This document shows, piece after piece, positions 3,408 to 64,000 of a stretch of DNA of 64,000 nucleotides. The position numbers were made by a program, and so were the translations under genes. A model generated the notes under the pieces. It did not search any database, was not told the origin of the DNA, and saw only the letters and a program-made list of their open reading frames with translations. Each line of letters begins with the position of its first letter. The first letter of the stretch is position 1. Source of the DNA: Gemmatimonadota bacterium (GTDB lineage Bacteria > Gemmatimonadota > Gemmatimonadetes > Gemmatimonadales > GWC2-71-9); assembly GCA_043744895.1 (NCBI GenBank), contig JAYTTT010000112.1, positions 3,381 to 67,380 on the forward strand, read 5' to 3'.

Positions 3408-5047
3408 GAACTCCGATCCGCACTCTGATGCTGACGGCCCTGACCCTGACTTCGGCCGGCAACGTTCTTGGAGCCCAGGCCAAACCGCCCAAGCCTGATC
3501 CGCGGCTGGCCAAACTCAAACAGGAAGTCGTGGCCGACGTCGAGGCCCGGGCCAAGTTCACCCAGGAGCTGGTCGACCAGGTCTTCAGCTTCGGGGAACT
3601 CGGCTTTCAGGAGTTCGAGACCTCGAAATTCCTGGTGAGCGTTCTTCGGAAGGAAGGCTTTACGGTCGAGGAGAACTACGCTGGCATTCCCACGGCTTGG
3701 GTGGCGACGTGGGGTTCTGGGAAGCCGGTCATTTCGTTAGGCTCCGACATCGACGGAATTCCCCAGGCGTCGCAGATGCCCGGGGTGGCCTGCCGGGCCC
3801 CGATGGTGCCGGGCGGCCCGGGTCACGGCGAGGGGCACAACGCGGGGCAGCCGCTCAACATCACGGCCGCTCTCGCGGTCAAGCGGCTGATGGAACGAGA
3901 CCGGATTTCCGGGACGATCAAGCTCTGGCCCGGCGTGGCCGAGGAGCAGATCGGGACCAAGGCCTACTTCGTCCGGGCCGGCCTGTTTCGCGATGTCGAC
4001 ATCAACATCTTCAGCCACGTCGCCAGCAAGTTCGACGTTCAATGGGGCCAGCCGGATGGCACCGGGCTCGTGTCGGTCGAGTACACCTTCCGGGGCCAGT
4101 CGGCCCACGCGGCCGGCGCCCCGTGGCGGGGCCGGAGCGCCCTCGACGCCGTCGAGTTGATGAACGTCGGGTGGAATTACCGCCGCGAGCACCTCAGGCT
4201 GCCGCACCGGTCGCACTACGTGGTGACCAACGGCGGCGACCAGCCCAACGTCGTCCCGCAGGTGGCCTCGGTCTGGTACTACTTCCGCGAGCTCGACTAC
4301 CCGAGCATCAAGACCCTCTGGGCCATCGGCGATTCGGTGGCGCAGGGCGCCGCGATGATGACCGGGACCACCCTCGAACCGACTCGGGTGTTAGGCTCGG
4401 CCTGGCCCAACCACCACAACAAGCCGATCGCCGTGGCGATGCTCGAGAACATCAAGCACGTCGGGATGCCCAAGTGGTCGGCTGACGACCAGCGGTTCGC
4501 CAAGGCGCTGCAGACGGAAATGAAGGTCAAGGTCCAGGGCCTCGACAGCGCCGTGTCGGACACACTCCAGACGCCCCCCAAGATGGAAGACATGAAAGGG
4601 GGCGGTTCCGACGACATCGGCGACGTGACCTGGACCCTGCCGTCGGTGACGCTGCGGTTTCCGTCGAACATTCCCGGCCTGCCGGGGCACAATTGGACCG
4701 ATGCGATCGCCATGGCCACGCCGGTGGCCCACCAAGGCGCCACCGCCGGAGCGAAGGCCATGGCCATGACCATGCTCGACATCCTGCTCACGCCGAAGCT
4801 GATCACCGATGCGTGGGACTACTTCAAGAACGTCCAGACCAAGGATGTGAAATACGAGCCGCTGATTCGGCCGGACGACCGGCCCGCGATCCACCTCAAC
4901 GCCGCGATCCTGGCCAAATACCGAGACCAGCTCCGGCCGTTCTACTACGATCCGGCCAAGTACAAGACCTACCTCGACCAGTTGGGGATCAAGTACCCCA
5001 CGGTCCGCTCTCCCGATGGGACCTGCGGGGCCAAAGCCGTGCCTTGA
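3404..5047 (+). CDS. Secreted M20 amidohydrolase (AbgB-like), copy 2
   Basis: ATGA overlap with copy 1; signal peptide; same motifs, collinear over the full length. Confidence 0.88.
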   Translation: MRTPIRTLMLTALTLTSAGNVLGAQAKPPKPDPRLAKLKQEVVADVEARAKFTQELVDQVFSFGELGFQEFETSKFLVSVLRKEGFTVEENYAGIPTAWVATWGSGKPVISLGSDIDGIPQASQMPGVACRAPMVPGGPGHGEGHNAGQPLNITAALAVKRLMERDRISGTIKLWPGVAEEQIGTKAYFVRAGLFRDVDINIFSHVASKFDVQWGQPDGTGLVSVEYTFRGQSAHAAGAPWRGRSALDAVELMNVGWNYRREHLRLPHRSHYVVTNGGDQPNVVPQVASVWYYFRELDYPSIKTLWAIGDSVAQGAAMMTGTTLEPTRVLGSAWPNHHNKPIAVAMLENIKHVGMPKWSADDQRFAKALQTEMKVKVQGLDSAVSDTLQTPPKMEDMKGGGSDDIGDVTWTLPSVTLRFPSNIPGLPGHNWTDAIAMATPVAHQGATAGAKAMAMTMLDILLTPKLITDAWDYFKNVQTKDVKYEPLIRPDDRPAIHLNAAILAKYRDQLRPFYYDPAKYKTYLDQLGIKYPTVRSPDGTCGAKAVP

Positions 5048-5120
5048 GAACCGGGCCGGTGTGCAAGGGTGACGGCTGCCGGACTCTCCCAGGCCGTCAC
5101 TCTTTCAGAAAATGGTTCCG

Positions 5121-6002
5121 ATGCGAATCCGCTCCGAAGTCACGGCCCTTCTGGTGTTCGTCAGTGCCTGCAGCATGGCCGCTCGTTCCAGCGCCCCCGC
5201 CGAAGAGTCTCCAACGAGTCCCAAAATGGCGGTTGCCTCCGACCTGAACACGCTTCGGGCCATGCCGGCCGGATTGGCGGCACCCGATGCCGCCCGTCAG
5301 GGCGGGATCGTCCTGCCGTCCCAGATGATCATCCGCACCGGTCAGGTCGCCATCGAGGTCGATTCGCTCGAGCGGGCCATCCGTCTGGTGGGCGAGGCCG
5401 CGACGGCGGCCGGCGGCTTCCTGGCCAATACCTCGATCCAGACCGGCCAGAACGCCCCCCGGACCGCCACTCTCGAAGTGAAGATCCCATCCGACCGATA
5501 CCAGGGGACATTCGATCGACTGAACCAGGTCGGCAAGGTCAGGTCGGCGACCACCACCAGCCAGGATGTCGGCGAAGAATTCGTCGACGTGTCGGCCCGG
5601 GTATCCAATGCCCGAAAACTCGAGGATCGGCTCCTTAACCTGCTGGCCACCCGGACCGGGAAGCTCGATGACGTCCTCACGGTCGAGCGCGAGCTGGCCC
5701 GGGTTCGCGAGGAAATCGAGCGGTATGAGGGGAGGATTCGGTACCTCAAGGCGCAGGTCTCGATGAGTACCATCGCCATTACCGTCTTCGAGCCGAGCCC
5801 GCTGGTAGGCGCCCCCGGGGACAACGTCTTGGTCCAGGCGCTGAAGGAGAGTTGGCGGAACTTCGTGTCGGTGATCGCCGGCGGGATCGCGGCGGCCGGC
5901 GGCCTAATTCCAGTGGTGGTGCTGGCGGGGCTCGGGCTGCTGGTGTTCCGGGCCGGCTGGCGGCGACTCCGCCCGTCGGCCGGCGCGATCAGCGGATCGT
6001 AG
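5121..6002 (+). CDS. DUF4349-domain lipoprotein
   Basis: Lipobox-like FVSAC; MIIRTG..IEV, QDVGEEFVDV.AR..N....E.RL, VERELARVREEIERYEGR; C-terminal TM segment. Confidence 0.8.
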   Translation: MRIRSEVTALLVFVSACSMAARSSAPAEESPTSPKMAVASDLNTLRAMPAGLAAPDAARQGGIVLPSQMIIRTGQVAIEVDSLERAIRLVGEAATAAGGFLANTSIQTGQNAPRTATLEVKIPSDRYQGTFDRLNQVGKVRSATTTSQDVGEEFVDVSARVSNARKLEDRLLNLLATRTGKLDDVLTVERELARVREEIERYEGRIRYLKAQVSMSTIAITVFEPSPLVGAPGDNVLVQALKESWRNFVSVIAGGIAAAGGLIPVVVLAGLGLLVFRAGWRRLRPSAGAISGS

Positions 6003-6447: not shown

Positions 6448-6448
6448 C

Positions 6449-13027: not shown

Positions 13028-14014
13028 GTGGGGATCATTGGATTGGTTGGCTGCCTGATGAGTCAGGCTGGGGTTCCGCTGATCATCGCGCACCGGGGCG
13101 CTAGCGGCTACCGGCCCGAGCATACCATCGAATCCTACCGCCTGGCCATCGAGCAGGGCGCCGACGTGATCGAGCCGGACCTGGTCATGACCAAGGACCG
13201 GATTCTGGTGGCCCGGCACGAGAACGAAATCGGCGCGACGACCGATGCGGCCGCGAAGTTCCCCGACCGGAAACGCACCAAAGTCATCGACGGCCAGTCG
13301 ACCACGGGGTGGTTTGCCGAAGACTTTACCCTGGCCGAACTGAAGCAGCTCCGGGCCCGCGAGCGGCTCGAGTTTCGGTCGCACCGATTCGACGGCCGGT
13401 TCGAGATCCCGACCTTCGAAGAAATTCTGGTTTTCGTTCGGCGGGAGGAGCGGCGACTCGGCCGGCGGATCGGGATCTACCCGGAGACCAAACATCCGAG
13501 CTACCACGAATCGTTAGGTCTCCCGATCACCGACTCCCTGCTATCGGTCTTGGCCCGGCACGGATACCGGGATCGATCGGAGCCGGTGTTCATCCAGTCG
13601 TTCGAGTCGGCCAACCTTCGAGCCGCCCGCCCCAAAACCAAGCTCCGGCTGGTTCGGCTGATCGAAGCCGCCGGGCCGCTGATCGAGCCGGCTGGATTAC
13701 GAGAGATCGCCGGCTTTGCGGACGGGATCGGCCCGTCGAAAGATCTGGTCCAGCCGATCGGGCCCGATGGCAGCCTGGGCCGGCCGACGTCGCTGGTGGC
13801 GGATGCCCACGCGGCCGGGCTCTTCGTTCATGTGTGGACTCTGCGGGCCGATCCTGCATTCCTGCCCAAGGGGTACGCCGGCGACCCCGCCGCCGAAGTG
13901 CGGCGGATGGTCGAACTCGGCGTGGATGGTTTCTTTACCGACTTTCCCGACCTGGCCCGGCGGGTGATTCTACCAGCTCAAGCCGCCCCCGGCCGGAGGC
14001 CAGGCTCCGAGTGA
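13028..14014 (+). CDS. glpQ: Glycerophosphodiester phosphodiesterase
   Basis: IIAHRGASGYRPEHT, IEPDLVMTKD..LVARHE, IYPETKHP, VFIQSFE, GVDGFFTDFPD. Confidence 0.9.
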   Translation: MGIIGLVGCLMSQAGVPLIIAHRGASGYRPEHTIESYRLAIEQGADVIEPDLVMTKDRILVARHENEIGATTDAAAKFPDRKRTKVIDGQSTTGWFAEDFTLAELKQLRARERLEFRSHRFDGRFEIPTFEEILVFVRREERRLGRRIGIYPETKHPSYHESLGLPITDSLLSVLARHGYRDRSEPVFIQSFESANLRAARPKTKLRLVRLIEAAGPLIEPAGLREIAGFADGIGPSKDLVQPIGPDGSLGRPTSLVADAHAAGLFVHVWTLRADPAFLPKGYAGDPAAEVRRMVELGVDGFFTDFPDLARRVILPAQAAPGRRPGSE

Positions 14015-15099: not shown

Positions 15100-15482
15100 C
15101 CGGGGCTGTCCATGGTGGAGGCGCCCTCGACCATCACGAGGACCCACCCGGCGATCAGGGCCACACCCCCGATCGGAGTGATCGCGCCGAGCCACCGCTG
15201 GCCGGTGAGGACCAGGGCGTAAAGACTTCCCGAAAAGACCACGATGCCCAATCCGAAGGCCCGGGCGGCCCAGTGGAGGTGCCGGGCGGGGTGCCGGTCG
15301 ATCCAGGCTCCGACACCGAGGAGGGCGACGGCGTGGTACATCTGATAGCGGGCCCCGGTTTCGAAGGTGGCCAGATCGGCGGGAGAGAGGCGGGCGGCCA
15401 GGGCGTGGGCCCCGAAGGCGCCGAGCGCGACGCCTAACGCTCCGGCCAGACCGGCCATCGCGAGCACCGTCCGGGCGTTCAT
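15096..15482 (-). CDS. DUF423 (YgdD/TMEM256) membrane protein
   Basis: GAFGAH, FETGARYQMYHA, FSGSLY, LGAITPIGG. Confidence 0.9.
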   Translation of the reverse strand: MNARTVLAMAGLAGALGVALGAFGAHALAARLSPADLATFETGARYQMYHAVALLGVGAWIDRHPARHLHWAARAFGLGIVVFSGSLYALVLTGQRWLGAITPIGGVALIAGWVLVMVEGASTMDSPG

Positions 15483-16401: not shown

Positions 16402-18987
16402 CTAAGTGTCGGCGCGGAGCACGGCCAGCGGCGGCCGCTTGAGGACCTCGGCGCTGCTCCACAATCCAACCAGCAACGTGAGTAGGACGAGCAGGGCGGT
16501 CAACCCGGTCAGGGAGCCGAGGGGAAGGTCATACCGGGCCTCGAACACCCACTTGGCGAGGGCCCACCCCGCGGCGGCCGACAGCACGATGGCGACGGTG
16601 GCCGCCAACAGGCCGAGGGCCACGTACTCGGCCACCAAGATCTGGAGGACCTGACGCCTGGTGGCGCCGAGGGTTTTGAGCAGGACGCCTTCGCGGAGCC
16701 GCTGGAGCCGGGCGGTGGTGACGGCCCCGATCAGTACGATCGTGCCGGCGGCCAGACTGAAGAGCGCCAGGAACCGCACCGCCAGCGCCGCCTTGGCCAG
16801 CACGCCCTCGATTGCCTCCTGGACCTGAGAGAGGTCGATGCCCGAAATGTTCGGATATTTTTCGGCGATCTGGCGCTGGACTTGGCCTCGGGCGGCGGCG
16901 CTGTCCACCCGGGTCAAGGTCACCAGCATCTGGGGGGCCTGTTCCAGCACTCCTGATTCGAAGACGATGAAGAAGTTGGTTTCGAACCGGCCCCAGTCGA
17001 TCTGGCGGAGGTTGGCGACCCGGCTCGGAATCTGGATTCCCTGAACATCCCAGACGATCTCGTCGCCGACGGTCACGCCGAGGTCGGCAGCGAGATCGGC
17101 GTCGACCGAAATTCGGGCCGGCCCGGTGCCGCGCGCGCCGGACCACCACGATCCGGACACCAGCTTCTCGCTGGCGGTCATCGTATCGCGATAGGTCGAC
17201 CGATATTCCCGGCGCACCGCCCACCCGCCCGCCCGCCGCTGGCGGGGACCTTGGGGCTCGCCCTCGGTGGTGTCGCGGCGGATGGTATCAGGGACGATCG
17301 CGACACCCTTGAGCGACGCGACCCGCATCGGGACGATCGGGACCGGGGCGCTGGCGGCGTAGCCGGCAGTCTTGAGCACGGCTTCGACGCCGGCGGCCTG
17401 GTCGCGCTGGATATCGAAAAACATCAGATTGGGCCGGCCGCCGCCGCTGGCGCCGCCGACCCGAAATTCCCTGAGCAAGTTGTGTTGCACCAAGAAGAGC
17501 GTGGCCAGGAGAAAGGCGCCGAAGCCTAACGCGAGCACCACGGTGCCGGTTTGGTTGGACGGCCGGTAGAGATTGGCCAGTCCCTGGCGGTACAGATACG
17601 GGAGCCGCCGCGGGAACCACCGCCGGAGGGCCGCGATCAAGCCCAACGACGCGAGCCAGAGCACCAAGACCACGAGCCCGACGCCGGCCGCGAAAATGGC
17701 TCCGTCGCGGAGGTTCTGGACCTGGACGGCCGACAGCCCGACCACGCTCGCGCCCAGGAGGCCGAACGCCGCCCAGGCCAGCGGGTCGGCGCGGCCGGGG
17801 GCCGCCTCGTAGGCACTGCGGAGGGTGACCAGGGGCGACACCCGCCGGACGCCGAGCAGGGGCAGCAACGCAAACACCAGCGCCACCCAGAGCCCGAGCC
17901 CGATCCCGACGATCAGGGCCTGGGGCGCCAGGGCGATCTGGACATCGACCGGGAGGAAATCCTTGACCAAGAGCGGCAAGATTCGCTGGACCCCGACTCC
18001 AAGCGCGGCCCCGACGACGCTGCCTAACGCTCCCATGGCGAGCGCCTGAGCCAGGTAGGCCAGGAACACCTGGCCCGAGGTGGCGCCGAGGCAGCGGAGG
18101 ACCGCGATGGTATCGAGCTTCTTTCGAATGAACAGATGGGTGGCGCTGGCGACCCCGAGGCCGCCCAACAGCAAGGCCACCAGGGCCACCAGACCGAGAT
18201 AGTTGCCGAGCCGGGTCAGGGAGTCGGTGAGGTTCTCCCGGTCGTCTTCGACGGTGCGAATGCCGTAACGGATCTGGCGGAGTGACAGCCGGCGGTCGTC
18301 GGCAATCGATTGGGCCTTGGCGGGGTTAGGGAGTTTGAGGAACAGCTCGTATTCGACCCGAGAGCCGAACTGGAGCAGGTTGGTGGCCGGGAGATCGGAC
18401 GCGGCGATGAACACCCGGGGGCCGATCGAGGTCGCGACCCCGATGTCGCCCGGAATATTGGTGACCGTCGCATCGATGACGAACCGGCCCTGGCCGAGAA
18501 TCAGAGTATCGCCGATCTCGGCTTTCAGGGCGGTGAGCAGCGCGGGATCGACCACGGCCCGGCCCCCGGCGGCGACCGACCCCCACCGCGCGGTGGGCGC
18601 CGTGACGATCCGGCCGTAATACGGGTAGCCCGGCTCGAGGGCTTTGACCTGCACCAGCCGAACCCCGGAGGTCCGCGCCACGTAGGCCATCCCGGCAAAG
18701 CTGGTGACTCGGGCCGCCGCCCCCGTGGCGGCCGAGTCACCCCGGATCAGGGTGTCGACCAGCCGCTCGATCCGGTCGGGAAATGGCTTCCGGCCCGAAA
18801 TGGCGATGTCGGCACCGAGCAGAGCCTTGGCCTGGGAACTGACCGAGGTCCGGAGGTTCTCGGTAAAGCCGTTGATCGCCACCAAGGCGGCAACCCCGGC
18901 CGCGACGGAACCGACCAAGAGGCTCAACCGGCGCCGCGAGGCCCGGGTTTCCCGCCACGCCAACTTGAAGACGAACTTGAGATTCAT
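16402..18987 (-). CDS. ABC transporter permease, YbbP/FtsX-like
   Basis: LAWRETRASRRRL, LLGAD, IAVLRCLGA, PNLMFFDIQ, LKTLGATRRQ; 861 aa with duplicated architecture. Confidence 0.88.
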   Translation of the reverse strand: MNLKFVFKLAWRETRASRRRLSLLVGSVAAGVAALVAINGFTENLRTSVSSQAKALLGADIAISGRKPFPDRIERLVDTLIRGDSAATGAAARVTSFAGMAYVARTSGVRLVQVKALEPGYPYYGRIVTAPTARWGSVAAGGRAVVDPALLTALKAEIGDTLILGQGRFVIDATVTNIPGDIGVATSIGPRVFIAASDLPATNLLQFGSRVEYELFLKLPNPAKAQSIADDRRLSLRQIRYGIRTVEDDRENLTDSLTRLGNYLGLVALVALLLGGLGVASATHLFIRKKLDTIAVLRCLGATSGQVFLAYLAQALAMGALGSVVGAALGVGVQRILPLLVKDFLPVDVQIALAPQALIVGIGLGLWVALVFALLPLLGVRRVSPLVTLRSAYEAAPGRADPLAWAAFGLLGASVVGLSAVQVQNLRDGAIFAAGVGLVVLVLWLASLGLIAALRRWFPRRLPYLYRQGLANLYRPSNQTGTVVLALGFGAFLLATLFLVQHNLLREFRVGGASGGGRPNLMFFDIQRDQAAGVEAVLKTAGYAASAPVPIVPMRVASLKGVAIVPDTIRRDTTEGEPQGPRQRRAGGWAVRREYRSTYRDTMTASEKLVSGSWWSGARGTGPARISVDADLAADLGVTVGDEIVWDVQGIQIPSRVANLRQIDWGRFETNFFIVFESGVLEQAPQMLVTLTRVDSAAARGQVQRQIAEKYPNISGIDLSQVQEAIEGVLAKAALAVRFLALFSLAAGTIVLIGAVTTARLQRLREGVLLKTLGATRRQVLQILVAEYVALGLLAATVAIVLSAAAGWALAKWVFEARYDLPLGSLTGLTALLVLLTLLVGLWSSAEVLKRPPLAVLRADT

Positions 18988-25116: not shown

Positions 25117-26096
25117 AGTCCGCCCCGAACCGAACCCTCGTGTTCTGGGCCTTCGCGGCCATTTATTTCATCTGGGGGTCGACCTACCTCGGGATTCAGA
25201 TCGCGATCGAGACCATGCCGCCCTTCCTGCTGGCGGCCGTCCGGTTTCTCCTGGCCGGGGCGATCTTGGTGGCCTGGGCCCGATGGCAGGGCGAGTCGTT
25301 GCCGGGCCGCTCCGCCTGGATGACCGCCGCCCTCTTGGGCACCCTCTTCTTCGTGTTCGGCAACGGCTTGGTGGTCTGGGCCGAGCAGCACGTGCCGTCG
25401 GGACGAACGGCGCTGCTGGCCTCGACCTCGCCGGTCTGGATCGTCATCCTGGAAAGCGGGCTCGATCGCTGGCGCCGCCCGCCGGTCCGCGTCCTGGCGG
25501 GCATTGGGCTCGGGATGATTGGCCTGATCCTGCTGGCGTCGCCCAATCTGGGCGAAACGAGCGGCGCCGTCTCGCTGGGGGGAATTCTCGCCCTGTTAGG
25601 CGCTTCGTTGGCCTGGGCCGTCGGGTCGGTGCTTGCCCATCGGCATCACCTTCCGGCCAGCCCGGCGATGGCCACCGGCATGAAGATGCTGGGCGGTGGA
25701 GCGCAGCTCGTGGTGGTGGCCCTGGTGGCGGGCGAAACTCGGGGGTTCTCGGCTCGCCAGGTGTCGCCGGGGTCGTGGGTCGCGTTCGTCTATCTGGTGA
25801 TCTTCGGCAGCATCATTGGTTTTACCGCCTTTGCCTACTTGCTCCGAGTCACCACGCCGCAGATGGTGGGGACCTCCGCGTATGTCAATCCGCTGGTGGC
25901 GGTGTTCTTGGGCTGGAGTTTGGCCCATGAGGTGGTCACGGCGAAGATGCTGCTGGGGGCGGCGATCAGCCTGGGAGCTGTGGTCCTGATCCGGATTCCG
26001 GTCCGCCATATTCCTGAGCCGGTTGAAGAGGAGGTCGGCACCATCGAGACCGGAGAGTTCCCCGTCCCGAGGCGCGGCGACGAAGGGCTTGGCTGA
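25113..26096 (+). CDS. EamA/DMT transporter (YedA-like)
   Basis: IYFIWGSTYLGI, PPFLLAAVRF, GNGLVVWAEQHVPSG, GSIIGFTAF, AYVNPLVAVFLG. Confidence 0.9.
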   Translation: MKSAPNRTLVFWAFAAIYFIWGSTYLGIQIAIETMPPFLLAAVRFLLAGAILVAWARWQGESLPGRSAWMTAALLGTLFFVFGNGLVVWAEQHVPSGRTALLASTSPVWIVILESGLDRWRRPPVRVLAGIGLGMIGLILLASPNLGETSGAVSLGGILALLGASLAWAVGSVLAHRHHLPASPAMATGMKMLGGGAQLVVVALVAGETRGFSARQVSPGSWVAFVYLVIFGSIIGFTAFAYLLRVTTPQMVGTSAYVNPLVAVFLGWSLAHEVVTAKMLLGAAISLGAVVLIRIPVRHIPEPVEEEVGTIETGEFPVPRRGDEGLG

Positions 26097-48117: not shown

Positions 48118-51100
48118 ATGATCGGACGGTTCGCGACGCGCCACGCCCTCTCGATCGTCTTCATCTGTGGCTCGCTCTGTCTGGCCGGCATCTATGCCGC
48201 CTCAAGCCTGGCGTCCTCGGTCTTTCCCCAGACCAACTTTCCCCGGGTCGTGATCCTGGTCGACAACGGCGTCATGCCCGGGGACGAAATGATGGCAACG
48301 ATCACCCGGCCGATCGAGGAGGCGCTGAAGGACATTCCCGGGGCGGTCAACGTGAAGTCGGCCACCGGCCGGGGCTCGGCGGAGATCAACGTCTTTTTTA
48401 CTTGGAACGTCGATATGGTGCAGTCCGAGCTCTATGTCTTGAGCCGGCTGTCCCAGATTCGAAGCACCCTGCCGGCCACCGCGTCGACCCGGGTCCAGCG
48501 CCTAACGTTCGCCGCCTTCCCGATTCTCGGCGTCAGCCTCACCAGCGAGACCCGGGACATCACCGCGCTGTGGGAAACCGCTCGCTACGACCTCAAGCCC
48601 CGGTTTCTCCAGATTCCCGGGGTCGCCCGGGTCGATCTGGTCGGCGGGCGGGCTCCCGAATATCATGTCGTGGTCGACCCGCTCCGGCTGAGCGCCGCGG
48701 GCTTGAGCTTGGCCGAGGTGACCCGGGCGCTCGAGGAGAACAATCTGGTCGCCCCGGCCGGCCTGCACGAGGAAGATCACACCCTCTACCTGACCGTGGT
48801 CGATGGCCGATTTCATTCGATCGCCAACATCGAGGATTTCGTGGTTTCGTCCGCCTCAGGCCACCCGGTCCGGCTTCGCGACGTGGCCGCCGTCATCCGG
48901 GGACCCGAGCCGGTGTTCAATAAGGTTACCGCCGACGGTCGCGCCGCGGTGCTCCTCAATATTCGGAGCCAGCCGGACGGGAGCACTCTCGACATTGCCC
49001 GCGAGCTGCGCGCTCGGATCGCGACGCTCCGGGGCGAGCTGCCGCCCGATCTCAAGCTGGCCTTCTTCTACGATCAGTCGGAAATCGTCCGGGCCTCGGT
49101 CCAGAGTGTCTGGGAGGCGATTCTCTTCGGGCTGATTCTCTCGGTGGTCATCATCTACCTGTTTCTGAGGAGCTGGAGCACGACCCTGGTGGCCACCCTG
49201 GTCATTCCGGTGACGGTGTTGATCACCCTGGTGTCGATGAAGCTCATGGGGCTCACCTTCAATCTGATGACGCTGGGCGGGATCGCCGCCGCGATCGGGT
49301 TGGTTATCGACGACGCGATCGTCGTAGTGGAAGCGATCCACACCCGGCTGGCCGAGGGCCGGTCCCACGCCGATGCGGTCGTGACCGGCCTGGCCGACAT
49401 TTTTCGTCCGTTGGTCGCGTCGACGCTGACCCCGGTCGTGGTGTTCATCCCGTTGGCGTTCCTGAGCGGGATCACCGGCGTCTTCTTCCGGGCGCTGGCG
49501 CTGACGATGGTGGTCTCGCTGCTCACCTCGCTGGCGCTGGCCGTGACCCTGACGCCGTCGCTCGCGGCCTGGTTGATTCGGGACCGGGCCAAGCGGGGCG
49601 ACGGGCCAGTGTTAGGCTGGATGATCGCCCGGTATGAGGCCGCCGTGCGTCCGGCGCTTCGGCGTCCGTGGCTCACCATGGGGGCCTGCGCGGTGGTGCT
49701 GGCCGCGGGGGTCGGTCTCTACGGGAGGCTCGAGAGCGAGTTCCTGCCCGCCATGGAGGAGGGCGGCTTCGTGATCGACTACTTCACGCCCCCAGGAACC
49801 AGCTTGACCGAAACCGACCGGCAACTCCTGCAGGCGGAGGCCATCATTCGATCGGTCCCGGAGGTGGAGAGCTACTCCCGCCGCACCGGGGCCCGGCTCG
49901 CGCTGGCCATTGCGGAACCCAACACCGGCGATTTCCTCGTCAAGCTGCGGACTGACCGGCGGCGTCCGACCGAGGCGGTCATCAGCGAGCTCCGCCGCAA
50001 GTTCAACACCGAACTCCCCGGCCTCAACTGGGATTTTCCCGGCATCCTCGGCGACTTGATCGGCGACCTGATGTGGGCGCCGAAGCCGATCGAGATCAAA
50101 CTCTACTCGACCGATCAGGCGTGGCTCAAGCGGAAGGCCCCGGAGGTGGCGGCGCAGCTGGAAAAGATCCCGGGTGTGGTGGACGTCTTCAACGGCTTGG
50201 TCTACACCGGGCCGACCCTGTCGCTCCGGGCCCGGGGGGCGGATGCCCGCCGGTTCGGCTTCACCGCCGCCGACATCGCGGCCGCCGTCAACACCGCGAT
50301 GCTGGGCCGGGTGGCGTCATCGGTGCTGGAAGGGGACCGGGTCGTGGAAATTCGGGTCAAGGTCGATTCGACCCGCCTCACGACCCTCACGCGGATTGGC
50401 GAACTCCCGCTTCGGACCCCGGCGGGGGCGCTGGTGAAACTCTCCCAGGTCGTGGATGTCGTCGAAGAACCGGGCCAGCTCGAACTTCGGCGCGAGGACA
50501 GCCGGCAAGACGTTGCCGTCGAGGCCCGCCTGGAAGGTCGTGACTTGGGGGGCGCCATCGCGGAAATTCGCCGGGTTTTGGACGCCGATGCCTCGATTCC
50601 GTCCGCCGCGATCGAGTACGGCGGCCTCTACCAGCAGCAACGCGAGTCGTTCCGGAATCTGGTCTCGGTGTTGGCGATGGCGGTGGCGCTGGTCTTCACG
50701 GTGTTGCTGCTTGAGTTCGGCTCGTTCTACGAGCCGGTCGCGATTGTCTTCGGGGCCATCCTCTCCCTCTTTGGAACCGTCCTGGCGCTCTGGGTAACGG
50801 GGACGTCTTTCAATGTGGTCTCGTTTCTCGGTGCGATCATCGGGATCGGGATCGTAGCCAAAAACGGGATCCTGATGCTGGATTACGTCCGGCACCTGCG
50901 CGAGGAAGGGGTGGACCTGGCCGAGGGTCTGATCCGGTCCGGCCGGCGCCGGCTTCGGCCGGTGCTGATGACCTCGATGGCCGCGGCCCTCGGCATGTTA
51001 CCTCTGGCCTATGGGATTGGCTCGGGCGCCGACATGCTCCGGCCGCTGGCGATTGCGGTCATCGGGGCCTTGGCGATCTCGGTCCTCCTGTCCCTGGTGG

Positions 51101-54858: not shown

Positions 54859-56796
54859 ATGATCCCAAGGTTGCCGTTCCCGCTTGTGTTGGTCGCCGCG
54901 GTGTTCACGGGGCCAACCGATGCGGCCCGGGCCCAGGCGCGTTCTGATTCAGCGTATCAGGTGGTTGCCACCCGGAACGTGATGGTGGTTGCCCGCGACG
55001 GCATGCGCCTGGCGACCGACGTCTACGCGCCGGGACGCAACGGAGTGGTGTCAGGCCGTTTTCCCGCCATCGTCGAACGGACCCCATACAACAAGGTCAG
55101 CGGGGCCGAGTCGCAGGTGGAGTACTTCGTACCACGGGGTTATGTGGTGGTCCGCCAGGACATCCGCGGGCGCTTTGCCTCCGAGGGCAAGTGGCGGCCG
55201 TTGCGGGACGACGGGCCCGACGGGGCCGACCTGCTGGCCTGGATCGCGGCCCAGCCGTGGTCCAATGGCAAGGTGGGCACCGTGGGGACGTCGTACAGCG
55301 GCGCCACCCAGCATGCCATTGCCATCACCAACGCGCCCAGCCTGGCCGCGATGGTGCCGGTCGACGCGATGAGCAATGCCGGCTACTACGGGATCCGCCA
55401 CCACGGTGCGTTCGAGTTGCGCTGGCTCAACTGGATCATGACGTTAGGCAACGCCACCGGCACCCGGGCGGCCGCTGACGGGCTCTCGGCCAGCCAGAAC
55501 GGCGTCGCGGCCGCGGCGCGTGCCGCCGCGACCCCCGCGGCCTCCGGCGCGCTCCAGGAACTCGGGACCATGGTCCGTGAGTACGCGTCGGCCCTGCCCC
55601 TCCGGCCCGGCACTACCCCGCTCAAGTTTGCGCCCGAGTACGAGTCGTGGCTGGTGGAGGCGATGCGCCACGGGGACAACGACAGCTTCTGGCGCGACAT
55701 GGGCGCCGGGGTGGTCGATCATCTGAAGGAGTACCAGGACGTCCCGGCCCATCACTTCACCGGGTGGTACGACTCGTGGGGCACCCAGGTGGCCAACATG
55801 AACTACGTCGAGCTGTCGCGAGCCAAGAAGAGCCTCCAGCGCCTGACGATCGGCCCGTGGACCCACGGCGGGCAGGGGCTGAGTTTCGCTGGGATTGCCG
55901 AATTTGGCCCGGAGGCTGCGCTCGACATGAACGCCCTTCGCATGCGCTGGTTCGATCGCTGGTTGCTGGGGATCGACAATGGGGTGGACCGCGAGCCGCC
56001 GGTCCGGGTCTTCGTCATGGGAGGGGGGGATGGTCGCAAGACCCCGGACGGCCGCCTTTTCGTCGGCGGACGGTGGCGCGAGGAGCGCGAGTGGCCGCTG
56101 GCCCGCACCGCCTACACACCCTACTACCTGCACTCCGATGGCGTTTTGTCCCCTGAGCTGCCCAAGGCGGCGGCGCCGACCTCCTACGCCTTCGACCCGC
56201 GCCATCCGGTGCCCACGATCGGGGGCAACGTCTCGTCGGAGGGCATTCTGATGCCGCGCGGCGCCCAGGATCAACGTTGCTCGAGCGCGCACTGGCTCTG
56301 CCAGGACGCCCTTCCGCTCTCGGCCCGACAGGACGTGCTGGTGTTTCAGACGGCGCCCCTGGAGCGTGACATCGAAGTCACCGGCCGCTTGGTCGTGAAG
56401 CTCTGGGCCGGCTCCGACGCGAAGGACACCGACTTCACCGTCAAACTGGTCGACGTCTACCCGCCGAACGCCGACTATCCGGCGGGGGTGGACCTCAATG
56501 TTGCCGACGGCATCGTCCGGGCCCGGTACCGCACCTCGCTCACCCGGCCCACGCTCCTCACCGGCAGCGATCCGCGCGAATACACCATCGAGATGTACCC
56601 CACCTCGCTGGTGTTCGCCCGCGGCCACCGCCTCCGCCTCGACGTGTCGAGCAGCAACTTCCCACGCTTCGACGTCAATCCCAACACCGGCGAACCCCTC
56701 GGAAGGCAACGGAGCCGGCGGATCGCGCAGAACAGCGTGTACCACGACCCAATCCATCTTTCCCGGATCCTACTGCCCATCATCCCCAAGCCCTGA
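54859..56796 (+). CDS. Secreted CocE/NonD-family hydrolase (peptidase S15)
   Basis: RTPYNK, QDIRGRFASEG, nucleophile GTSYSG, GWYD, GPWTH, SSNFPRFDVNPNTG. Confidence 0.92.
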   Translation: MIPRLPFPLVLVAAVFTGPTDAARAQARSDSAYQVVATRNVMVVARDGMRLATDVYAPGRNGVVSGRFPAIVERTPYNKVSGAESQVEYFVPRGYVVVRQDIRGRFASEGKWRPLRDDGPDGADLLAWIAAQPWSNGKVGTVGTSYSGATQHAIAITNAPSLAAMVPVDAMSNAGYYGIRHHGAFELRWLNWIMTLGNATGTRAAADGLSASQNGVAAAARAAATPAASGALQELGTMVREYASALPLRPGTTPLKFAPEYESWLVEAMRHGDNDSFWRDMGAGVVDHLKEYQDVPAHHFTGWYDSWGTQVANMNYVELSRAKKSLQRLTIGPWTHGGQGLSFAGIAEFGPEAALDMNALRMRWFDRWLLGIDNGVDREPPVRVFVMGGGDGRKTPDGRLFVGGRWREEREWPLARTAYTPYYLHSDGVLSPELPKAAAPTSYAFDPRHPVPTIGGNVSSEGILMPRGAQDQRCSSAHWLCQDALPLSARQDVLVFQTAPLERDIEVTGRLVVKLWAGSDAKDTDFTVKLVDVYPPNADYPAGVDLNVADGIVRARYRTSLTRPTLLTGSDPREYTIEMYPTSLVFARGHRLRLDVSSSNFPRFDVNPNTGEPLGRQRSRRIAQNSVYHDPIHLSRILLPIIPKP

Positions 56797-58092: not shown

Positions 58093-58093
58093 C

Positions 58094-59188
58094 GTGGTCC
58101 GCACGACGCGGGTGCGGCTCGACCGGATCGCCTCCTCGACTAAGAACGCTCGGCTTGCCCCCGACGTGATTCTCGGCGACGACATCCTGGCCGAGGAGGG
58201 ACGGATCGTCGCGGTCCGCATTCTGACCGACAAGTCGAGCTATAACACGGTCGAAGATCCGAGCGGGCGGATGATGGCGCTCCGGGCCGGCGATGTCCTG
58301 GCCGGAACGTTAGGCTCGCGCCGGGCACTCCGGGGCTACGCCGGCGAAGTGCCCGCCTCCGTGGCCGTCGGCGACACCATCGAGGTCCTCAACTTGGGCG
58401 GCATTCTTGGCCGCTGTACCTCGATCAATCCCGACATCGGGCCGCCGTTCAAGGCTGAGGTCCTGGGCGCCGTTCTGACCTTCCCGGAGCTGGGCGACCG
58501 AATCGGCCGGCCGGCCACGATCAAGGACGGCGCGATTCCGGCGGCCGACGTGCTCAGTTCCGATACCCCGATCGTGTTCGTCGCGGGTACCTGCATGAAC
58601 GCCGGGAAGACGGTGGCGGCGACCGAGCTGGTCCGGGGGTTGTCGCGCCGGGGGCTCAAGGTCGGCGCGGCCAAGCTGACGGGCGTGTCGTTGATGCGCG
58701 ACACGCTCTCGATGCTCGACGCGGGGGCGGTGGCGGCCCTCACCTTCAACGATGCCGGGATCGCGAGCACCCATCCGGGGCAGACGGTCGGGGTCGCCAA
58801 GGGCTTGCTCAACCGGCTCGGCAGCCGCCAGGCCGGGTCGCCCGATGTGATCGTGGCCGAGCTGGGCGACGGAATTCTCGGCGAGTACGGCGTCCAGGAC
58901 ATTCTCCTCGACGCCCAGTTGATGAGCGTGGCGGCGGCCCACGTGATGGCCGCCCCCGATCCGGTGGCCTGCTGGGGGGCGCTCGAACTGTTCCGCGACC
59001 GGTTCAAGCTACCGATCGCGGTGTTCACCGGGCCGGCCACCGACAATCAGGTTGGGCGCGACTTCATTGAAGGCACCCTTGGCTTGCCCTCGCACAACGC
59101 CCTTCGGGACGCCGCCGGCTTGGTCGACCGGATCGAGCCGCTGGTTCGAGCGGCCATGGCGGCCGCCGTTCCAGCCGCGGCGGGCTAA
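58094..59188 (+). CDS. Uncharacterised P-loop protein, DUF1611/DgcN-like, embedded in the arg operon
   Basis: GTG start 1 nt after the argG stop; stop overlaps the argC ATG; VAGTCMNAGKT, AAKLTG, DVIVAELGDG. Confidence 0.7.
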   Translation: MVRTTRVRLDRIASSTKNARLAPDVILGDDILAEEGRIVAVRILTDKSSYNTVEDPSGRMMALRAGDVLAGTLGSRRALRGYAGEVPASVAVGDTIEVLNLGGILGRCTSINPDIGPPFKAEVLGAVLTFPELGDRIGRPATIKDGAIPAADVLSSDTPIVFVAGTCMNAGKTVAATELVRGLSRRGLKVGAAKLTGVSLMRDTLSMLDAGAVAALTFNDAGIASTHPGQTVGVAKGLLNRLGSRQAGSPDVIVAELGDGILGEYGVQDILLDAQLMSVAAAHVMAAPDPVACWGALELFRDRFKLPIAVFTGPATDNQVGRDFIEGTLGLPSHNALRDAAGLVDRIEPLVRAAMAAAVPAAAG

Positions 59189-60216
59189 TGCGGGTCGCGG
59201 TCATCGGGGCGGCGGGCTATGTCGGCGGCGAGTTGCTCCGGCTCCTGTTCCAGCACCCGGACATATCCGACGTCCTGGCCACCAGCCGAAGTCAGGCGGG
59301 CAGGCCGTTAGGCGCCGCCCATCCGGCCCTGGCGTACCGGGCCGAGGCCCGGTTCTCCGGAGCCACGCCCGCGGAAGCGGCCCGAGGCATGGATGTAGTC
59401 TTCCTGGCCCTCGAACACGGCGAGTCCTCGAAGCTGATGGGCGACATTGTCGGTCAGGGGGCGGGGCTGATCATCGACTTGGCGGCTGATTTCCGGATTC
59501 GCGATGGCCGGCTCTACGCGGCGTACTACGGCGCTCACCCCGCGCCGGGGTTGGTCCATCGGTTCCAGTACGGCCTGGCTGACGTGCGGGGTCGTGAGCT
59601 GAGGGGGGCCACGGCGATCGCGGCTCCGGGATGCTTTGCCACGGCATCGCAGTTGGCGCTCTACGTCCTCCGCGCGGCTCCGCTGGTGGGCGAGCCCGTG
59701 ATCTATGGGATCACCGGTTCGAGCGGGGCGGGCGTTCATCCCAAGCCAACCACCCATCATCCGGCCCGGGCCCATAACGTGTTCGCCTACTCGGTCCTGG
59801 GCCACCGGCACGAGGCCGAGATGGCCGAGCAATGGCGGGCGTGGACCGGCCGGCCGGAGGCAACGCCGCGGCTCCTGTCGCACTCGGGGCCGTTCGTCCG
59901 GGGTATTTACGCCACCGTGCACGCCCATTTGCGGGAGCCGGTCGGCGCGGCGGTTGTCGCCGGGGCCGCGGCGGCATTCGCGGGCCGGCCGTTTGTCCGG
60001 GTGCTCGATGCGCCGCCGCAATTGACCCATGTGGTCGGCACCAACGACGCGCTGATTCACGCCGCCACCACCGCGGATGGCCGCGAAGTGGCGGTGACCG
60101 TGGCGATCGACAACTTGGTCAAAGGCGCCGGCGGCCAAGCGGTGCAGGCGATGAATTTGGCGCTCGGTCTCCCGGAAACGGCTGGCCTCCGGGTGGCGGC
60201 CCCGTTTCCGATCTAA
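59188..60216 (+). CDS. argC: N-acyl-gamma-glutamyl-phosphate reductase
   Basis: GAAGYVGGELLRLL..HP, VFLALEHG, IIDLAADFR, PGCFAT, HRHEAE, IDNLVKGAGGQAVQAMN. Confidence 0.93.
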   Translation: MRVAVIGAAGYVGGELLRLLFQHPDISDVLATSRSQAGRPLGAAHPALAYRAEARFSGATPAEAARGMDVVFLALEHGESSKLMGDIVGQGAGLIIDLAADFRIRDGRLYAAYYGAHPAPGLVHRFQYGLADVRGRELRGATAIAAPGCFATASQLALYVLRAAPLVGEPVIYGITGSSGAGVHPKPTTHHPARAHNVFAYSVLGHRHEAEMAEQWRAWTGRPEATPRLLSHSGPFVRGIYATVHAHLREPVGAAVVAGAAAAFAGRPFVRVLDAPPQLTHVVGTNDALIHAATTADGREVAVTVAIDNLVKGAGGQAVQAMNLALGLPETAGLRVAAPFPI

Positions 60217-60238
60217 TGCCCACGATGAGGAACGAAAG

Positions 60239-61390: not shown

Positions 61391-62400
61391 GAAAACGTGA
61401 TTTCCTGGCCACCGAGGATCTCGGCGCCGACGGCTTCAAGGCCATGCTTGATCTGGCCGCGCGGGTCAAGCGTGGTGAGGTGCCAGGTGGCCTCGAAGGC
61501 AAGATCATGGCCGCCGCGTTCTTGGACCCGAGTCTCCGCACCCGGGCCAGTTTCGAGTCGGCCATGTTCATGCACGGCGGGCATATGATCGTGCTGGAAC
61601 CGGGGCGGGGCAGCTGGAGCCTCGAAACCGAGCAGGGCGCCGTCATGGAAGGCACCGCCGTCGAGCACTTGATCGAGACCTCCCGGGTCCTGGGTCGGTA
61701 CGCGGATGTGATCGGGGTTCGGGTCTTTCCCCGCGGCACCGAGTGGGTCCGGGAGCGCCAGGACCGGATCATCAAGGATTTCGCCGCGTACAGCGAGAAG
61801 TCGGTGATCAATCTCGAATCGGCTCGCCGGCATCCCTGCCAGGGTCTGGCCGACGCGCTGACCCTGAAAGAAAAACTCGGCGATCCCAAGGGCAAGAAGT
61901 TCGTGATGAGCTGGGCCTGGCACCCGAAGGCGCTGCCCACGGCGGTGCCGGCCAGCGCGGCCATTGCCGCGGCGCAGTTAGGCATGGACGTGGTCATCGC
62001 CCGGCCCCAGGGGTTCGACCTTGACGCCGAGGACATGGCGACGATCTATCAGCAGGCGGCGGCTGCGGGGGGCCGAGTCACGCTCGCGCAGTCCCAAACG
62101 GATGCCATGGTCGGGGCCGATGCGGTCTATGTGAAGTCCTGGGGCTCGCTCCAGCACTACGGCAAGCCAGAGGAGGAGAAGGAGTTCCGGGCCGGGCTTC
62201 GGGGCTGGAAGATGACCACCGATTTGCTTCGGGCCACCAAGGCGGGCAGAGGGATCGTGATGCATTGTCTCCCGGTGCGGCGGAACGTCGAAATCGACGA
62301 TGCGGTCCTCGACGGCCCCTGCTCGGTGGTAATCGACGAAGCGGAGAACCGGCTCCATGTTCAGCGGGCGCTGCTCCTTGAGCTGATTGGAAAGAAATAA
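61387..62400 (+). CDS. argF': N-acylornithine carbamoyltransferase (AOTCase/SOTCase family; succinyl-type signature)
   Basis: SLRTRASF, WSLETEQGAVMEGTAVEH, HPCQGLAD, WAWHPKALP.AV, YVKSW, MHCLPVRRNV. Confidence 0.9.
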   Translation: MRKRDFLATEDLGADGFKAMLDLAARVKRGEVPGGLEGKIMAAAFLDPSLRTRASFESAMFMHGGHMIVLEPGRGSWSLETEQGAVMEGTAVEHLIETSRVLGRYADVIGVRVFPRGTEWVRERQDRIIKDFAAYSEKSVINLESARRHPCQGLADALTLKEKLGDPKGKKFVMSWAWHPKALPTAVPASAAIAAAQLGMDVVIARPQGFDLDAEDMATIYQQAAAAGGRVTLAQSQTDAMVGADAVYVKSWGSLQHYGKPEEEKEFRAGLRGWKMTTDLLRATKAGRGIVMHCLPVRRNVEIDDAVLDGPCSVVIDEAENRLHVQRALLLELIGKK

Positions 62401-63338
62401 TGTCGCCTCATGACGTGACCCGGCCTTTGGCGGGGTTGAAGGGTGCGCTCCGGTACGTTCGGGCCTATCGAGACCATGTGTTCGTGGTCAAGGTTGGCGG
62501 TGACGTCGTGGCCGACGGGCATGGACTCGACCAGGTGTCGGCCCAGCTGGGGCTCCTCCACAGCCTCGGCATCCGGATCGTCATCGTCCACGGCGGCGGT
62601 CCCCAGGCCACGGCGCTGAGCCGCCGCCTCGGGCACGAGCCCGAGATCGTGGCCGGGCGCCGGGTCACCGACGATGCGGCCCTCGAAGTGGTCAAAATGG
62701 TATTTGCCGGAACGGCCAACCTCGATTTGCTCTGCGCCCTTCGGCGGCACGGGGTGCAGGCGGTGGGCTTGAGCGGCGTCGATGCCGACCTGCTGTCGGC
62801 CACCAAGCGGCCGCCGGTGACGGTCACGGACGATGCCGGGGTGACCCGGGTGGTCGATTACGGGCACGTCGGCGAGATCGAGCACGTCGACGGCCGGGTG
62901 TTGACGACGCTCCTCGATCAGCGGTTCGTGCCGGTGATCTGTTCCTTGGCCGGCGACCGGGACGGTCACGTGTTCAACGTCAATGCCGACACCGTGGCCG
63001 AACGGATCGCGGTCGATCTCAAGGCTCAGAAACTGATCTTCCTGACCGGGGTGGCCGGTGTGCTTCGCGATCGCAACGATCCCTCCTCGCTCGTCACGTT
63101 CGCCGATCCCGACGATCTGGCCCAGTTGATGGAAGCCGGTGCCCTCGCCGGCGGCATGCGGCCCAAGGTCGAGGCCTGCATCCGGGCGGCGACCAGCGGG
63201 GTCGAGCGGACCCACATCATTGACGGCCGGGCCACCGACTCGCTGTTGCAGGAAGTGTTCACCGGATCTGGAACCGGGACGATGATCGTGGGCAAGAAAG
63301 AAAAGGCGACCTACGTCGGGGCTGAACTTGCGGAATGA
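62400..63338 (+). CDS. argB: N-acylglutamate kinase
   Basis: FVVKVGG, VHGGGPQ, GRRVTD, GLSGVD, NVNADTVA, GGMRPKV, IIDGR; 312 aa with no fused GNAT domain. Confidence 0.93.
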   Translation: MSPHDVTRPLAGLKGALRYVRAYRDHVFVVKVGGDVVADGHGLDQVSAQLGLLHSLGIRIVIVHGGGPQATALSRRLGHEPEIVAGRRVTDDAALEVVKMVFAGTANLDLLCALRRHGVQAVGLSGVDADLLSATKRPPVTVTDDAGVTRVVDYGHVGEIEHVDGRVLTTLLDQRFVPVICSLAGDRDGHVFNVNADTVAERIAVDLKAQKLIFLTGVAGVLRDRNDPSSLVTFADPDDLAQLMEAGALAGGMRPKVEACIRAATSGVERTHIIDGRATDSLLQEVFTGSGTGTMIVGKKEKATYVGAELAE

Positions 63339-64000
63339 AGTCGAGCTCCTGAAGGCGTTGGTGGCGTGCCCCTCAATCAGCGGCACCGAGGACGCGATTG
63401 CCCGGCTGGTCGAACAGGTCGCCGCGGGGTTCGGGCTTGACGTGGTACGCGACGATACCGGGGTCAAGATATCGGTCGATACCGGCCGGCCGGGCCGGAC
63501 GTTGGCGTTCCTTTCCCATCTCGATGTCGTGCCGCCGGGCGACGGCTGGACTCGCGATCCCTTTACCCCGGTGGTCGAGGGTGACCTGCTCTACGGCCGG
63601 GGCTCCGGCGACGCCAAGGCGTCGGTGGCCTCGATGCTGCTGGCCGCGCTCGACTTTGCCGAACAGCGAGGGAATTCGGTTGGCGGCTCGCTGTTGGTGG
63701 TGTTCGGTCTGGGCGAAGAAACGAAACACACGACGATGGGCCGGGCGGTCGCCACCTTGCCTCCGATCACCGCGGCGGTCGTTGGGGAGCCGACCAATCT
63801 CGACGTAGCGATTGCCCAGCGGGGCCTGATGATGGTCGACCTGGTGGCGCGCGGCGACCAGCGGCACGCGGGTTACGCCTCCGAGGGCAATTGTGCCAAT
63901 GCCATTACCCGGTTGGCGGCCGACCTGGTCCGGCTGCCGTCGCTGCTTCAGGATCGCATCCATCCGGTGTTAGGCACGACGACGGTGACGGCCACCATGA
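63328..64000 (+). CDS. argE: ArgE/DapE-family deacylase (partial, runs off the right edge)
   Basis: Manual translation: LLKALVACPSISGTE, FLSHLDVVP, LYGRGSGDAKASV, GEET, VVGEPT, QRHAG; TTG start is approximate. Confidence 0.8.
   Translation, partial: MRNEVELLKALVACPSISGTEDAIARLVEQVAAGFGLDVVRDDTGVKISVDTGRPGRTLAFLSHLDVVPPGDGWTRDPFTPVVEGDLLYGRGSGDAKASVASMLLAALDFAEQRGNSVGGSLLVVFGLGEETKHTTMGRAVATLPPITAAVVGEPTNLDVAIAQRGLMMVDLVARGDQRHAGYASEGNCANAITRLAADLVRLPSLLQDRIHPVLGTTTVTATM

Follow-up and report, generated by a model that had tools for sequence, protein, structure and literature searches.

A single short word repeated throughout the genome is known from few bacterial lineages, the described examples being the highly iterated palindrome HIP1, the DNA uptake sequences and uptake signal sequences (DUS/USS), and Chi, and the cause of such accumulation is still argued. 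Other dispersed DNA sites are read by dedicated proteins: MatP, SlmA and Noc act on tens of palindromic, regionally restricted sites (matS, the SlmA-binding sites SBS and the Noc-binding sites NBS, respectively). Here we analyze a motif built on the heptamer GTTAGGC (GCCTAAC on the opposite strand) in a stretch of 64,000 nucleotides, referred to below as the window (G000:C112, a contig of the Gemmatimonadales genome G000), in the remainder of that genome and across the phylum. The HIP1 sites of cyanobacteria are regularly spaced and conserved, and take alternative forms in some lineages, according to two reports (PMC4390886; PMC5861425). No description of our motif, or of the protein proposed below to read it, was found in the literature, with subscription papers, REBASE and supplements lying outside the scope of the search.

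Like HIP1 (GCGATCGC), the motif is an octamer that reaches hundreds to about 1,000 copies per Mb, lies in frame inside genes and is looser at its first and last bases; its sites are also conserved and regularly spaced. Unlike HIP1, it is not palindromic (the reverse complement of CGTTAGGC is GCCTAACG), showed no shared methylase in the two families tested, is patchy in one order rather than phylum-wide, is tracked by a candidate reader, and occurs in phage records. With the DUS/USS of Neisseriaceae and Pasteurellaceae it shares a non-palindromic sequence, over-representation on both strands without polarity, conservation, scarcity in atypical genes, one-base dialects and the presence of competence genes in its hosts. 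It differs from them in being shorter (8-9 bp), in lacking terminator inverted pairs, in its occurrence in three families with within-genus absence, and in that no receptor pilin was identified. It is an asymmetric octamer found mostly in coding DNA, as are Chi, the FtsK-orienting polar sequences (KOPS) and the architecture-imparting sequences (AIMS), but shows no replichore polarity, and AddAB-type genes were not found in most motif-rich genomes. As with MatP/matS, SlmA/SBS and Noc/NBS, a protein (here a candidate) would read dispersed sites in genes regardless of promoters, but the sites number ca. 1,000-4,500, are asymmetric and evenly spread, and the candidate reader has an AP2-like fold. 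The motif resembles HIP1 or DUS in its working, yet fails a defining test for each.

A genome-wide signal at the DNA level

The octamer CGTTAGGC is the top-ranked word of G000, where it occurs 1,007 times, 19-fold over Markov models of orders 2-3; the heptamer GTTAGGC occurs 1,377 times. The original prediction, made from the window, of a non-palindromic word iterated on both strands genome-wide was therefore borne out, although the true unit is not the plain heptamer it proposed but an octamer with loose ends. The consensus is YGTTAGGY(R). Variants at the ends are still enriched (TGTTAGGC 9.6-fold, CGTTAGGT 10-fold), while the GTTAGG core is strict: among 18 single-mismatch variants of the core, 14 were at or below expectation and the other four did not exceed 1.22-fold, compared to 25-fold for the motif itself.

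Coding copies in the four open reading frames of the motif, TTA-GGC, GTT-AGG, CTA-AC and CCT-AAC, numbered 852, 37, 99 and 150, respectively. Within-gene synonymous shuffles predict 45, 10, 13 and 29 (a 4- to 19-fold enrichment), while a dicodon null predicts 622, 17, 28 and 78. Most of the Leu-Gly frame is thus absorbed by the dicodon null, as mere codon-pair bias would have it, but the three other frames exceed this null 1.9-3.6-fold, and the motif is as dense between genes (0.29/kb) as within them (0.27/kb; 1,145 of the 1,377 copies are wholly genic). The enrichment is therefore neither confined to the Leu-Gly frame nor erased by dicodon-preserving shuffles, in agreement with the DNA-level selection originally suspected. 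Forty percent of all TTA codons (852 of 2,117) lie inside the motif, a fraction whose determination had been proposed at the outset, and its two closed frames serve as stops, supplying 69 of 620 TAA and 56 of 1,164 TAG codons.

No replichore polarity was detected: on G000 contigs with clear skew, leading and lagging genes used 7.9% and 7.4% of motif opportunities (P 0.52-0.65), and none was seen across 12 chromosome windows of the genome G305. Copies are spread evenly over contigs (dispersion chi-square of 99.6 over 79 contigs). Typical genes use 8-10% of their opportunities, while genes with a low G+C content at third codon positions (GC3) shun the motif (5 of 454 opportunities, ca. 1%, at GC3 below 0.75, versus 772 of 9,069 at 0.80-0.90). 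Inverted pairs of the terminator type were limited to three within 30 bp in the entire genome, and convergent gaps were not enriched (0.23/kb versus 0.25-0.30/kb in other gaps). We conclude that the motif is a genome-wide, DNA-level signal that is selected or driven.

Two intergenic clusters of sites were also noted, each a possible regulated promoter: four sites at G000:C263:8965-9044, between phosphatase-like and glycosyltransferase genes, and three at G000:C294:5441-5491, before a sigma-factor-like gene.

Motif copies in the window

In the window, 20 copies of GTTAGGC and 8 of GCCTAAC were counted, exactly at the coordinates predicted and with none beyond these 28. Markov models of orders 1-3 give an expectation of 2.1-2.6 copies instead of the ca. 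7 estimated initially, and GTTAGGC is the top-ranked heptamer of the window under all three orders. All 28 copies lie inside genes, as called by a codon-model script, which agrees with the original placement of every copy in coding sequence; as a property of the motif this does not hold, given the equal genic and intergenic densities in the whole genome. Twenty-three copies read TTA-GGC, and the frames reported for the copies at 32590 and 40944 (GTT-AGG), 31422 (CCT-AAC) and 48500 (CTA-ACG) were verified; a second CCT-AAC copy, at 22503, had been overlooked. Four of five reported near-matches (13513, 18325, 34748 and 34775) are flank variants, while the fifth (39779, TTTAGGC) breaks the core and belongs to a class that is not enriched. 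The copies and flank variants are as follows:

3736..3742, plus strand: TCG-TTA-GGC, amidohydrolase gene
4390..4396, plus strand: GTG-TTA-GGC, same amidohydrolase gene as 3736
13512..13519, plus strand: flank variant CGTTAGGT, of the 10-fold enriched class, which avoids neighbors as the main motif does
15432..15438, minus strand: GCG-TTA-GGC, DUF423 gene
17524..17530, minus strand: GCG-TTA-GGC, ABC permease gene
18022..18028, minus strand: GCG-TTA-GGC, same ABC permease gene as 17524
18325..18331, plus strand: weak flank variant GTTAGGG
21627..21633, minus strand: CTG-TTA-GGC, Ig-like domain gene
22503..22509, plus strand: ATG-CCT-AAC, start of the minus-strand gene 20364-22511; the stop codon (TAA) of the kinase gene that ends at 22504 also falls in this copy
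23137..23143, minus strand: CGG-TTA-GGC, histidine kinase gene
25595..25601, plus strand: CTG-TTA-GGC, drug/metabolite exporter gene
27921..27927, minus strand: CCG-TTA-GGC, OmpA-domain gene
30339..30345, plus strand: CCG-TTA-GGC, alpha-2-macroglobulin gene; exact in one other species, with last-base variants in three more
31422..31428, minus strand: GTG-CCT-AAC, alpha-2-macroglobulin gene; in 11 of the 17 aligned sequences that span it
31755..31761, plus strand: CGG-TTA-GGC, alpha-2-macroglobulin gene; in 6 of 16 aligned sequences
32590..32596, plus strand: GTT-AGG, alpha-2-macroglobulin gene; in the alignment, in this genome only
33375..33381, plus strand: GTG-TTA-GGC, alpha-2-macroglobulin gene; in 4 of 16 aligned sequences
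34535..34541, plus strand: CCG-TTA-GGC, pbpC
34747..34781, plus strand: two weak flank variants CGTTAGGG (GTTAGGG at 34748 and 34775), pbpC
35240..35246, plus strand: GCG-TTA-GGC, pbpC
36764..36770, plus strand: GCG-TTA-GGC, nitroreductase gene
40721..40727, plus strand: GCG-TTA-GGC, ADOP permease gene
40944..40950, plus strand: GTT-AGG, same ADOP permease gene as 40721
41879..41885, plus strand: ACG-TTA-GGC, same ADOP permease gene as 40721
48500..48506, minus strand: CGC-CTA-ACG, RND permease gene
49611..49617, plus strand: GTG-TTA-GGC, same RND permease gene as 48500
55443..55449, plus strand: ACG-TTA-GGC, CocE/NonD hydrolase gene
58309..58315, plus strand: ACG-TTA-GGC, open reading frame (ORF) 58094-59188 of the arg cluster
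59307..59313, plus strand: CCG-TTA-GGC, argC
61977..61983, plus strand: CAG-TTA-GGC, N-acetylornithine carbamoyltransferase gene
63969..63975, plus strand: GTG-TTA-GGC, ORF starting at 63328

Spacing and conservation of sites

Spacing was compared with a null in which sites are redrawn among synonymous opportunities (300 draws). In G000, close pairs are depleted to 0.14 of expectation below 100 bp, 0.21 at 100-200 bp and ca. 0.55 at 200-400 bp, none of the 300 draws being as low; pair frequency is normal beyond 600 bp, and sites thus avoid each other below ca. 500 bp. In a comparison with control words, motif pairs stood at 0.18 of the null below 200 bp and 0.56 at 200-400 bp, while five control heptamers ranged from 0.84 to 1.51. 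Sites of the variant CGTTAGGT likewise avoid neighbors (6.3% versus 16.6%), and the effect was repeated in four other sequence sets (40 versus 79 pooled pairs below 400 bp). Avoidance was stronger between sites in opposite orientation (18 pairs below 400 bp versus 70.5 expected) than in the same orientation (69 versus 126 expected), both in G000 and in other genomes pooled (L163-L207, L238-L257), though internal gene repeats may inflate the same-orientation count.

Conservation in orthologues, another check proposed originally, was seen in 226 orthologues from the genome G011: TTA was kept at 44 of 66 motif sites but at only 6 of 60 other TTA codons (P 4e-11), and CCT at 6 of 9 motif sites versus 11 of 148 elsewhere. 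In the more distant G006, TTA was kept at 11 of 40 motif and 2 of 34 other positions, and with G305 none of 53 sites was common. In the alpha-2-macroglobulin alignment the widely shared CCT-AAC site persists despite near-saturation of fourfold sites, while turnover is seen at the other sites, in some cases together with amino-acid differences. Individual sites are thus maintained, yet not bound to position. Four sequencing runs of one study contain the window, two of them being its possible source, and their contigs were without usable variation at motif sites.

Distribution in Gemmatimonadales and a one-base dialect

The phylum-wide distribution, also on the initial list of checks, was determined in 401 genomes. 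Twenty-four reach 30 octamers per Mb, with a maximum of 974/Mb, and all belong to Gemmatimonadales; none of the 134 genomes outside the order reaches this level (unpublished G181 or G447 count as poor in this survey, as they do in the C-form and protein-profile surveys below). All 22 genomes of the genus carry 32-334 octamers per Mb. Motif-rich genomes are dispersed among three families, and the trait can be absent within a genus that has it, as in G294 and G423; G294 is motif-poor though three congeners are the richest genomes. Further motif-rich genomes are G439 (196/Mb) and G450 (37/Mb).

A one-base dialect, CGTCAGGC (the C form, as opposed to the T form), is preferred in G029 (29 versus 6.4). 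Across 251 genomes, the C form is present at roughly 40-90/Mb in most, reaches 682/Mb in G037 and exceeds 390/Mb in G259, G383, G435 and G133, high values occurring largely where the T form is present too. In a quick tree built on 42 DprA rows the trait is dispersed, and the well-supported branches force at least three changes; from this weak tree, a single origin of motif richness followed by losses may be envisaged.

Motif copies in phage records

Two scans for motif pairs yielded 45 and at least 122 stretches, ca. 80 of the latter being examined. At least 20 loci had 5 or more copies; at least 11 of these are GC-rich phage records with copies in genes, and the remaining ones are AT-rich repeats or attC-like arrays. 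The phage records with genic copies are:

L295, L297, L313, L357, L363, L365, L372, L378, L382, L383/L400 and L412

These 11 records, which were chosen by their motif pairs, have 60-73% GC and 0.3-1.8 motifs per kb. Three whole records contain 29 copies in 44 kb, 16 in 22 kb and 43 in 41 kb, while the reversed word occurs 3, 0 and 2 times, respectively. In the coding DNA of ten phage loci pooled, 87 copies were found versus 2.8, with the same strict core. Head, tail or terminase genes are present in the whole records, and L297 has genes for a terminase, a portal protein, a capsid protein and two methyltransferases. Four of the 11 records have integrase-like matches, one is a provirus, and several look temperate.

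A candidate reader protein

A listing of close site clusters in G000 led to an ORF coding for a basic protein, which has three sites in its promoter and a fourth immediately downstream:

G000:C484:2547-2828, minus strand: candidate reader gene, 93 amino acids, outside the window

Three or more GTTAGG sites within 200 bp upstream are found at 3 of 4,008 G000 genes, the candidate among them, while 360 genes have at least one. In two sets of homologues, 27 of 30 and 7 of 10 genes have GTYAGG in the 300 bp upstream, in many at a fixed position of -24 to -35. Several genomes of the C dialect have mostly C-form sites there, and upstream sites are also present at homologues from motif-poor G360, G074 and G022 (chance below 1% each).

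Co-occurrence was scored on a panel of 80 genomes, a strong match being E<1e-10 with the single protein. Of the genomes filed as rich, 32 of 39 had a match, compared to 5 of 41 among those filed as poor; two of these five later proved rich (78 and 164/Mb), which brings the counts to 34 of 41 for rich and 3 of 39 for poor genomes, the C form being uncounted for a few of the poor ones. A profile of the candidate matched 58 of the 401 genomes, none of them outside the order; in family f2 it gave a strong match in 13 of 17 rich genomes but in 0 of 78 poor ones (one weak).

An AlphaFold model (pLDDT 79) predicts strands at residues 27-32, 37-49 and 52-62 and a helix at 69-86, together with a disordered basic tail. 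In the model, the three-stranded sheet packs on the C-terminal helix as in the AP2/ERF domain (PF00847), which 8 of 101 relatives match; unlike AP2/ERF proteins, the family consists of stand-alone proteins of 82-124 amino acids with a Lys/Arg-rich tail, and the candidate itself has no Pfam match. It contains 24 Lys/Arg versus 3 Asp/Glu residues, a small basic stand-alone protein as expected of a nucleoid protein, and has no evident signal peptide. In an Atlas neighbor cluster (score 0.88), AP2 is present in 15% of members, and the best viral fold neighbors are HNH endonucleases (E 0.14-0.26). Named close relatives are all hypothetical proteins of Gemmatimonadota, with unrelated, variable gene neighbors. 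Judging from the predicted fold, charge, promoter sites and co-occurrence, the candidate is predicted to bind DNA. A code relating the residue at position 40 (W versus Y/F) to the dialect was dropped because of exceptions in G037, G259 and G389. A second, distant AP2-like basic ORF is located at G000:C109:22158-22467 (plus strand; E 1.8e-6 to profile A2), with CCCTAACC ca. 110 bp upstream.

We tentatively favor, at somewhat less than an even chance, the view that YGTTAGGY(R) is the putative binding site of this AP2-like small basic protein, acting as a sequence-guided nucleoid protein; the nucleoid-protein option of the original prediction has in this way gained a named candidate. A strict core, indifference to orientation and diminishing returns over ca. 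500 bp point to a protein that is beneficial through local coverage. The three-stranded sheet would read the motif, the Lys/Arg tail would grip DNA non-specifically, and the protein would tune its own gene via the promoter sites. One bound site would serve a few hundred bases, such that a second site nearby adds little, and weak selection or drive for coverage would pay for the rare codons. Phage DNA, being exposed to the same protein, would gain sites as well. The family would be the reader in most lineages, while motif-rich lineages without it would need a diverged or unrelated reader. A bolder version, possible but clearly doubtful, is sequence-addressed chromatin, in which a protein of AP2 fold, its basic tail resembling that of histone H1, would read an asymmetric octamer every ca. 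1-4 kb, site and reader dialects would co-vary, codons and amino acids would be rewritten, and phages would adopt the motif to pass as self.

Several observations weigh against assigning the motif to this protein. The promoter cluster in G000 is not independent evidence, since the protein was found via motif clusters, and promoter sites would equally fit a gene regulated by another reader. Seven rich genomes (G241, G298, G402, G305, G036, G038 and G040) have no match to the single protein; the first four, at 596-974/Mb, are among the richest, and one protein-less genome is complete in four contigs. Profiles A1 and A2 were empty in subsets of five protein-less rich genomes, and synteny beside an AlaX-like gene revealed no reader in the richest genomes; a Pfam AP2 search of a subset of protein-less rich genomes also returned nothing, but was uninformative, as it matched no genome at all. 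Conversely, 15 genomes of family f1 with a second subfamily are not enriched (median pattern/control ratio of 0.53 versus 0.52 in 36 genomes without it), and genus g20 (15 f1 genomes with family members) is enriched only ca. two-fold (1.01). These observations thus establish neither necessity nor sufficiency of the candidate. Related genomes are not independent in the co-occurrence counts, and the DprA tree is weak. No fold match was obtained at E<=0.001 (the best Foldseek values were 0.13 and 0.04), and no solved structure matched the candidate by sequence.

Alternative explanations

Integron integrase, AddAB, C5 and N6/N4 methylases, ComEC, DprA and the pilin repertoire were each tried as separators of rich from poor genomes, and failed. 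The main rival, which we consider unlikely, is that the motif forms a third family of DNA uptake sequences: a competence pilus or periplasmic receptor would prefer motif DNA, and biased uptake with recombination would maintain the even spacing, the AP2-like gene being a passenger or acting after uptake. Absence of polarity, even spacing, low-GC3 depletion, site conservation and a one-base dialect are all properties described for DUS (PMC2397512). Competence genes are present as well (ComEC in 5 of 5, DprA in 77 of 80 and type IV pilins in 5 of 5 genomes), but they are as frequent in motif-poor genomes, and no pilin separates rich from poor. About half of DUS/USS sit in terminators, as stated in a preprint (bioRxiv 10.1101/2025.10.24.684340); the three inverted pairs of G000 and the lack of a convergent-gap excess do not fit this pattern. 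Uptake also leaves unexplained the conserved promoter clusters at a protein without evident signal peptide, and sits poorly with phage records that reach 0.3-1.8/kb.

A repair or gene-conversion ratchet of the kind proposed for HIP1 appears improbable. A motif-bound protein would decide, for a few hundred bases around it, which strand serves as template. New sites would then become fixed only at a distance from existing ones, and this on all DNA present in the cell. The ratchet model predicts saturation and spacing (PMC4390886), and would account for phages and secondary contigs alike. On the other hand, fourfold-site identity near sites (0.57-0.59) equals the background (0.57), i.e., no halo of lower divergence was seen, the sites being partly saturated. 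Nor did the two methylase families tested include one common to the rich genomes, which also speaks against the modification target considered originally: C5 methylases (PF00145) were present in 0 of 5 rich genomes and the N6/N4 family (PF01555) in 3 of 5, being missing from the richest tested (Dam-like D12 and phosphorothioate families were not searched). The methylome of a cultured Gemmatimonadota strain (RGATCY, ATGCAC and CCAGN7TCA; PMC3974934) contains no match to the motif, and was given no weight.

The at least 11 GC-rich phage records with in-frame copies at host-like or higher density would suit a defense self-tag, a rather remote prospect in our estimation, in which occupied sites would protect the DNA of the host against a nuclease or silencer that translocates along it, with phages imitating the tag. 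The patchy range agrees with it, the AP2-like protein could be the shield, and phages that use host Chi reportedly provide a precedent. However, no nuclease tracked the motif, the phage records were found via motif pairs, and several look temperate.

An integron origin, with the motif being an attC core spread or selected through the integrase, is very improbable. The match to the integron core GTTRRRY pointed out in the original prediction holds for a handful of attC-like hairpins in G000 that end in CGTTAGGC, located as follows:

G000:C59:11054-11190
G000:C188:5788-5914
G000:C271:41372 and 46735
G000:C359:4106

Background counts in motif-poor genomes often stem from same-strand arrays, and G000 contains three intI genes (C181, C59 with an internal TAG, and C364). 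But these ca. five paired hairpins stand among 1,377 copies, 1,145 of them inside genes; the dialect CGTCAGGC departs from GTTRRRY; conservation extends to both sides of the crossover point, which would not be so in a scar; and the integrase does not track the motif, being above the cut-off in poor G025-G027 and G032-G035 and not found in rich G013 and G037.

Finally, a polar signal of the Chi, KOPS or AIMS type, or mere codon-pair bias, is hardly credible: the density of the octamer in G000, ca. 0.2/kb, is like that of Chi, but polarity is absent, three frames exceed the dicodon null, and AddAB-type nucleases (PF12705) do not track the motif (they were not found in rich G000, G006, G241, G305 and many others, and were found in many poor genomes). 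In all, 45 of the 80 Gemmatimonadales genomes searched gave no AddAB-type match, several of these genomes being near-complete.

Other features of the genome and window

Tandem heptamer arrays G[AC]G[CT]GCC occur at 56837-56850 of the window and 181 times genome-wide, 144 of them not deep inside called genes; they are unrelated to the motif and common to sister species. Different words of other genomes (CACAGAG in G025, AGGGTTCAG in G294) may be such tandem repeats. A likely dif site, CGTCGTATAA-GATGTA-TTATGTTAACT, is present on the minus strand of G000:C509; its XerD arm is TTATGTTAACT, and the idea that the motif is a dif arm was rejected. In the window, an M20 peptidase is split across overlapping ORFs 11670-12476 and 12443-13021 (11670-13021 overall), a possible frameshift. 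An arginine cluster at 56899-63338 contains argG, argC, argD, the N-acetylornithine carbamoyltransferase gene and argB. The argG product is 32-35% identical to its best matches in G241, G294, G298 and G305, and its closest relatives are Gemmatimonadota records, mostly from Gemmatimonadales.

Implications

If the bolder version, sequence-addressed chromatin, is true, the motif would be a genome-iterated bacterial word with an intracellular, methylation-independent reader. A candidate reader, a T/C dialect pair, rich and poor genomes in one genus, an exclusion distance of ca. 500 bp and phage copies make this an independent and testable case of a short word stamped genome-wide. In a phylum of which few members are cultured, it may also be of use in assigning phages to their hosts.

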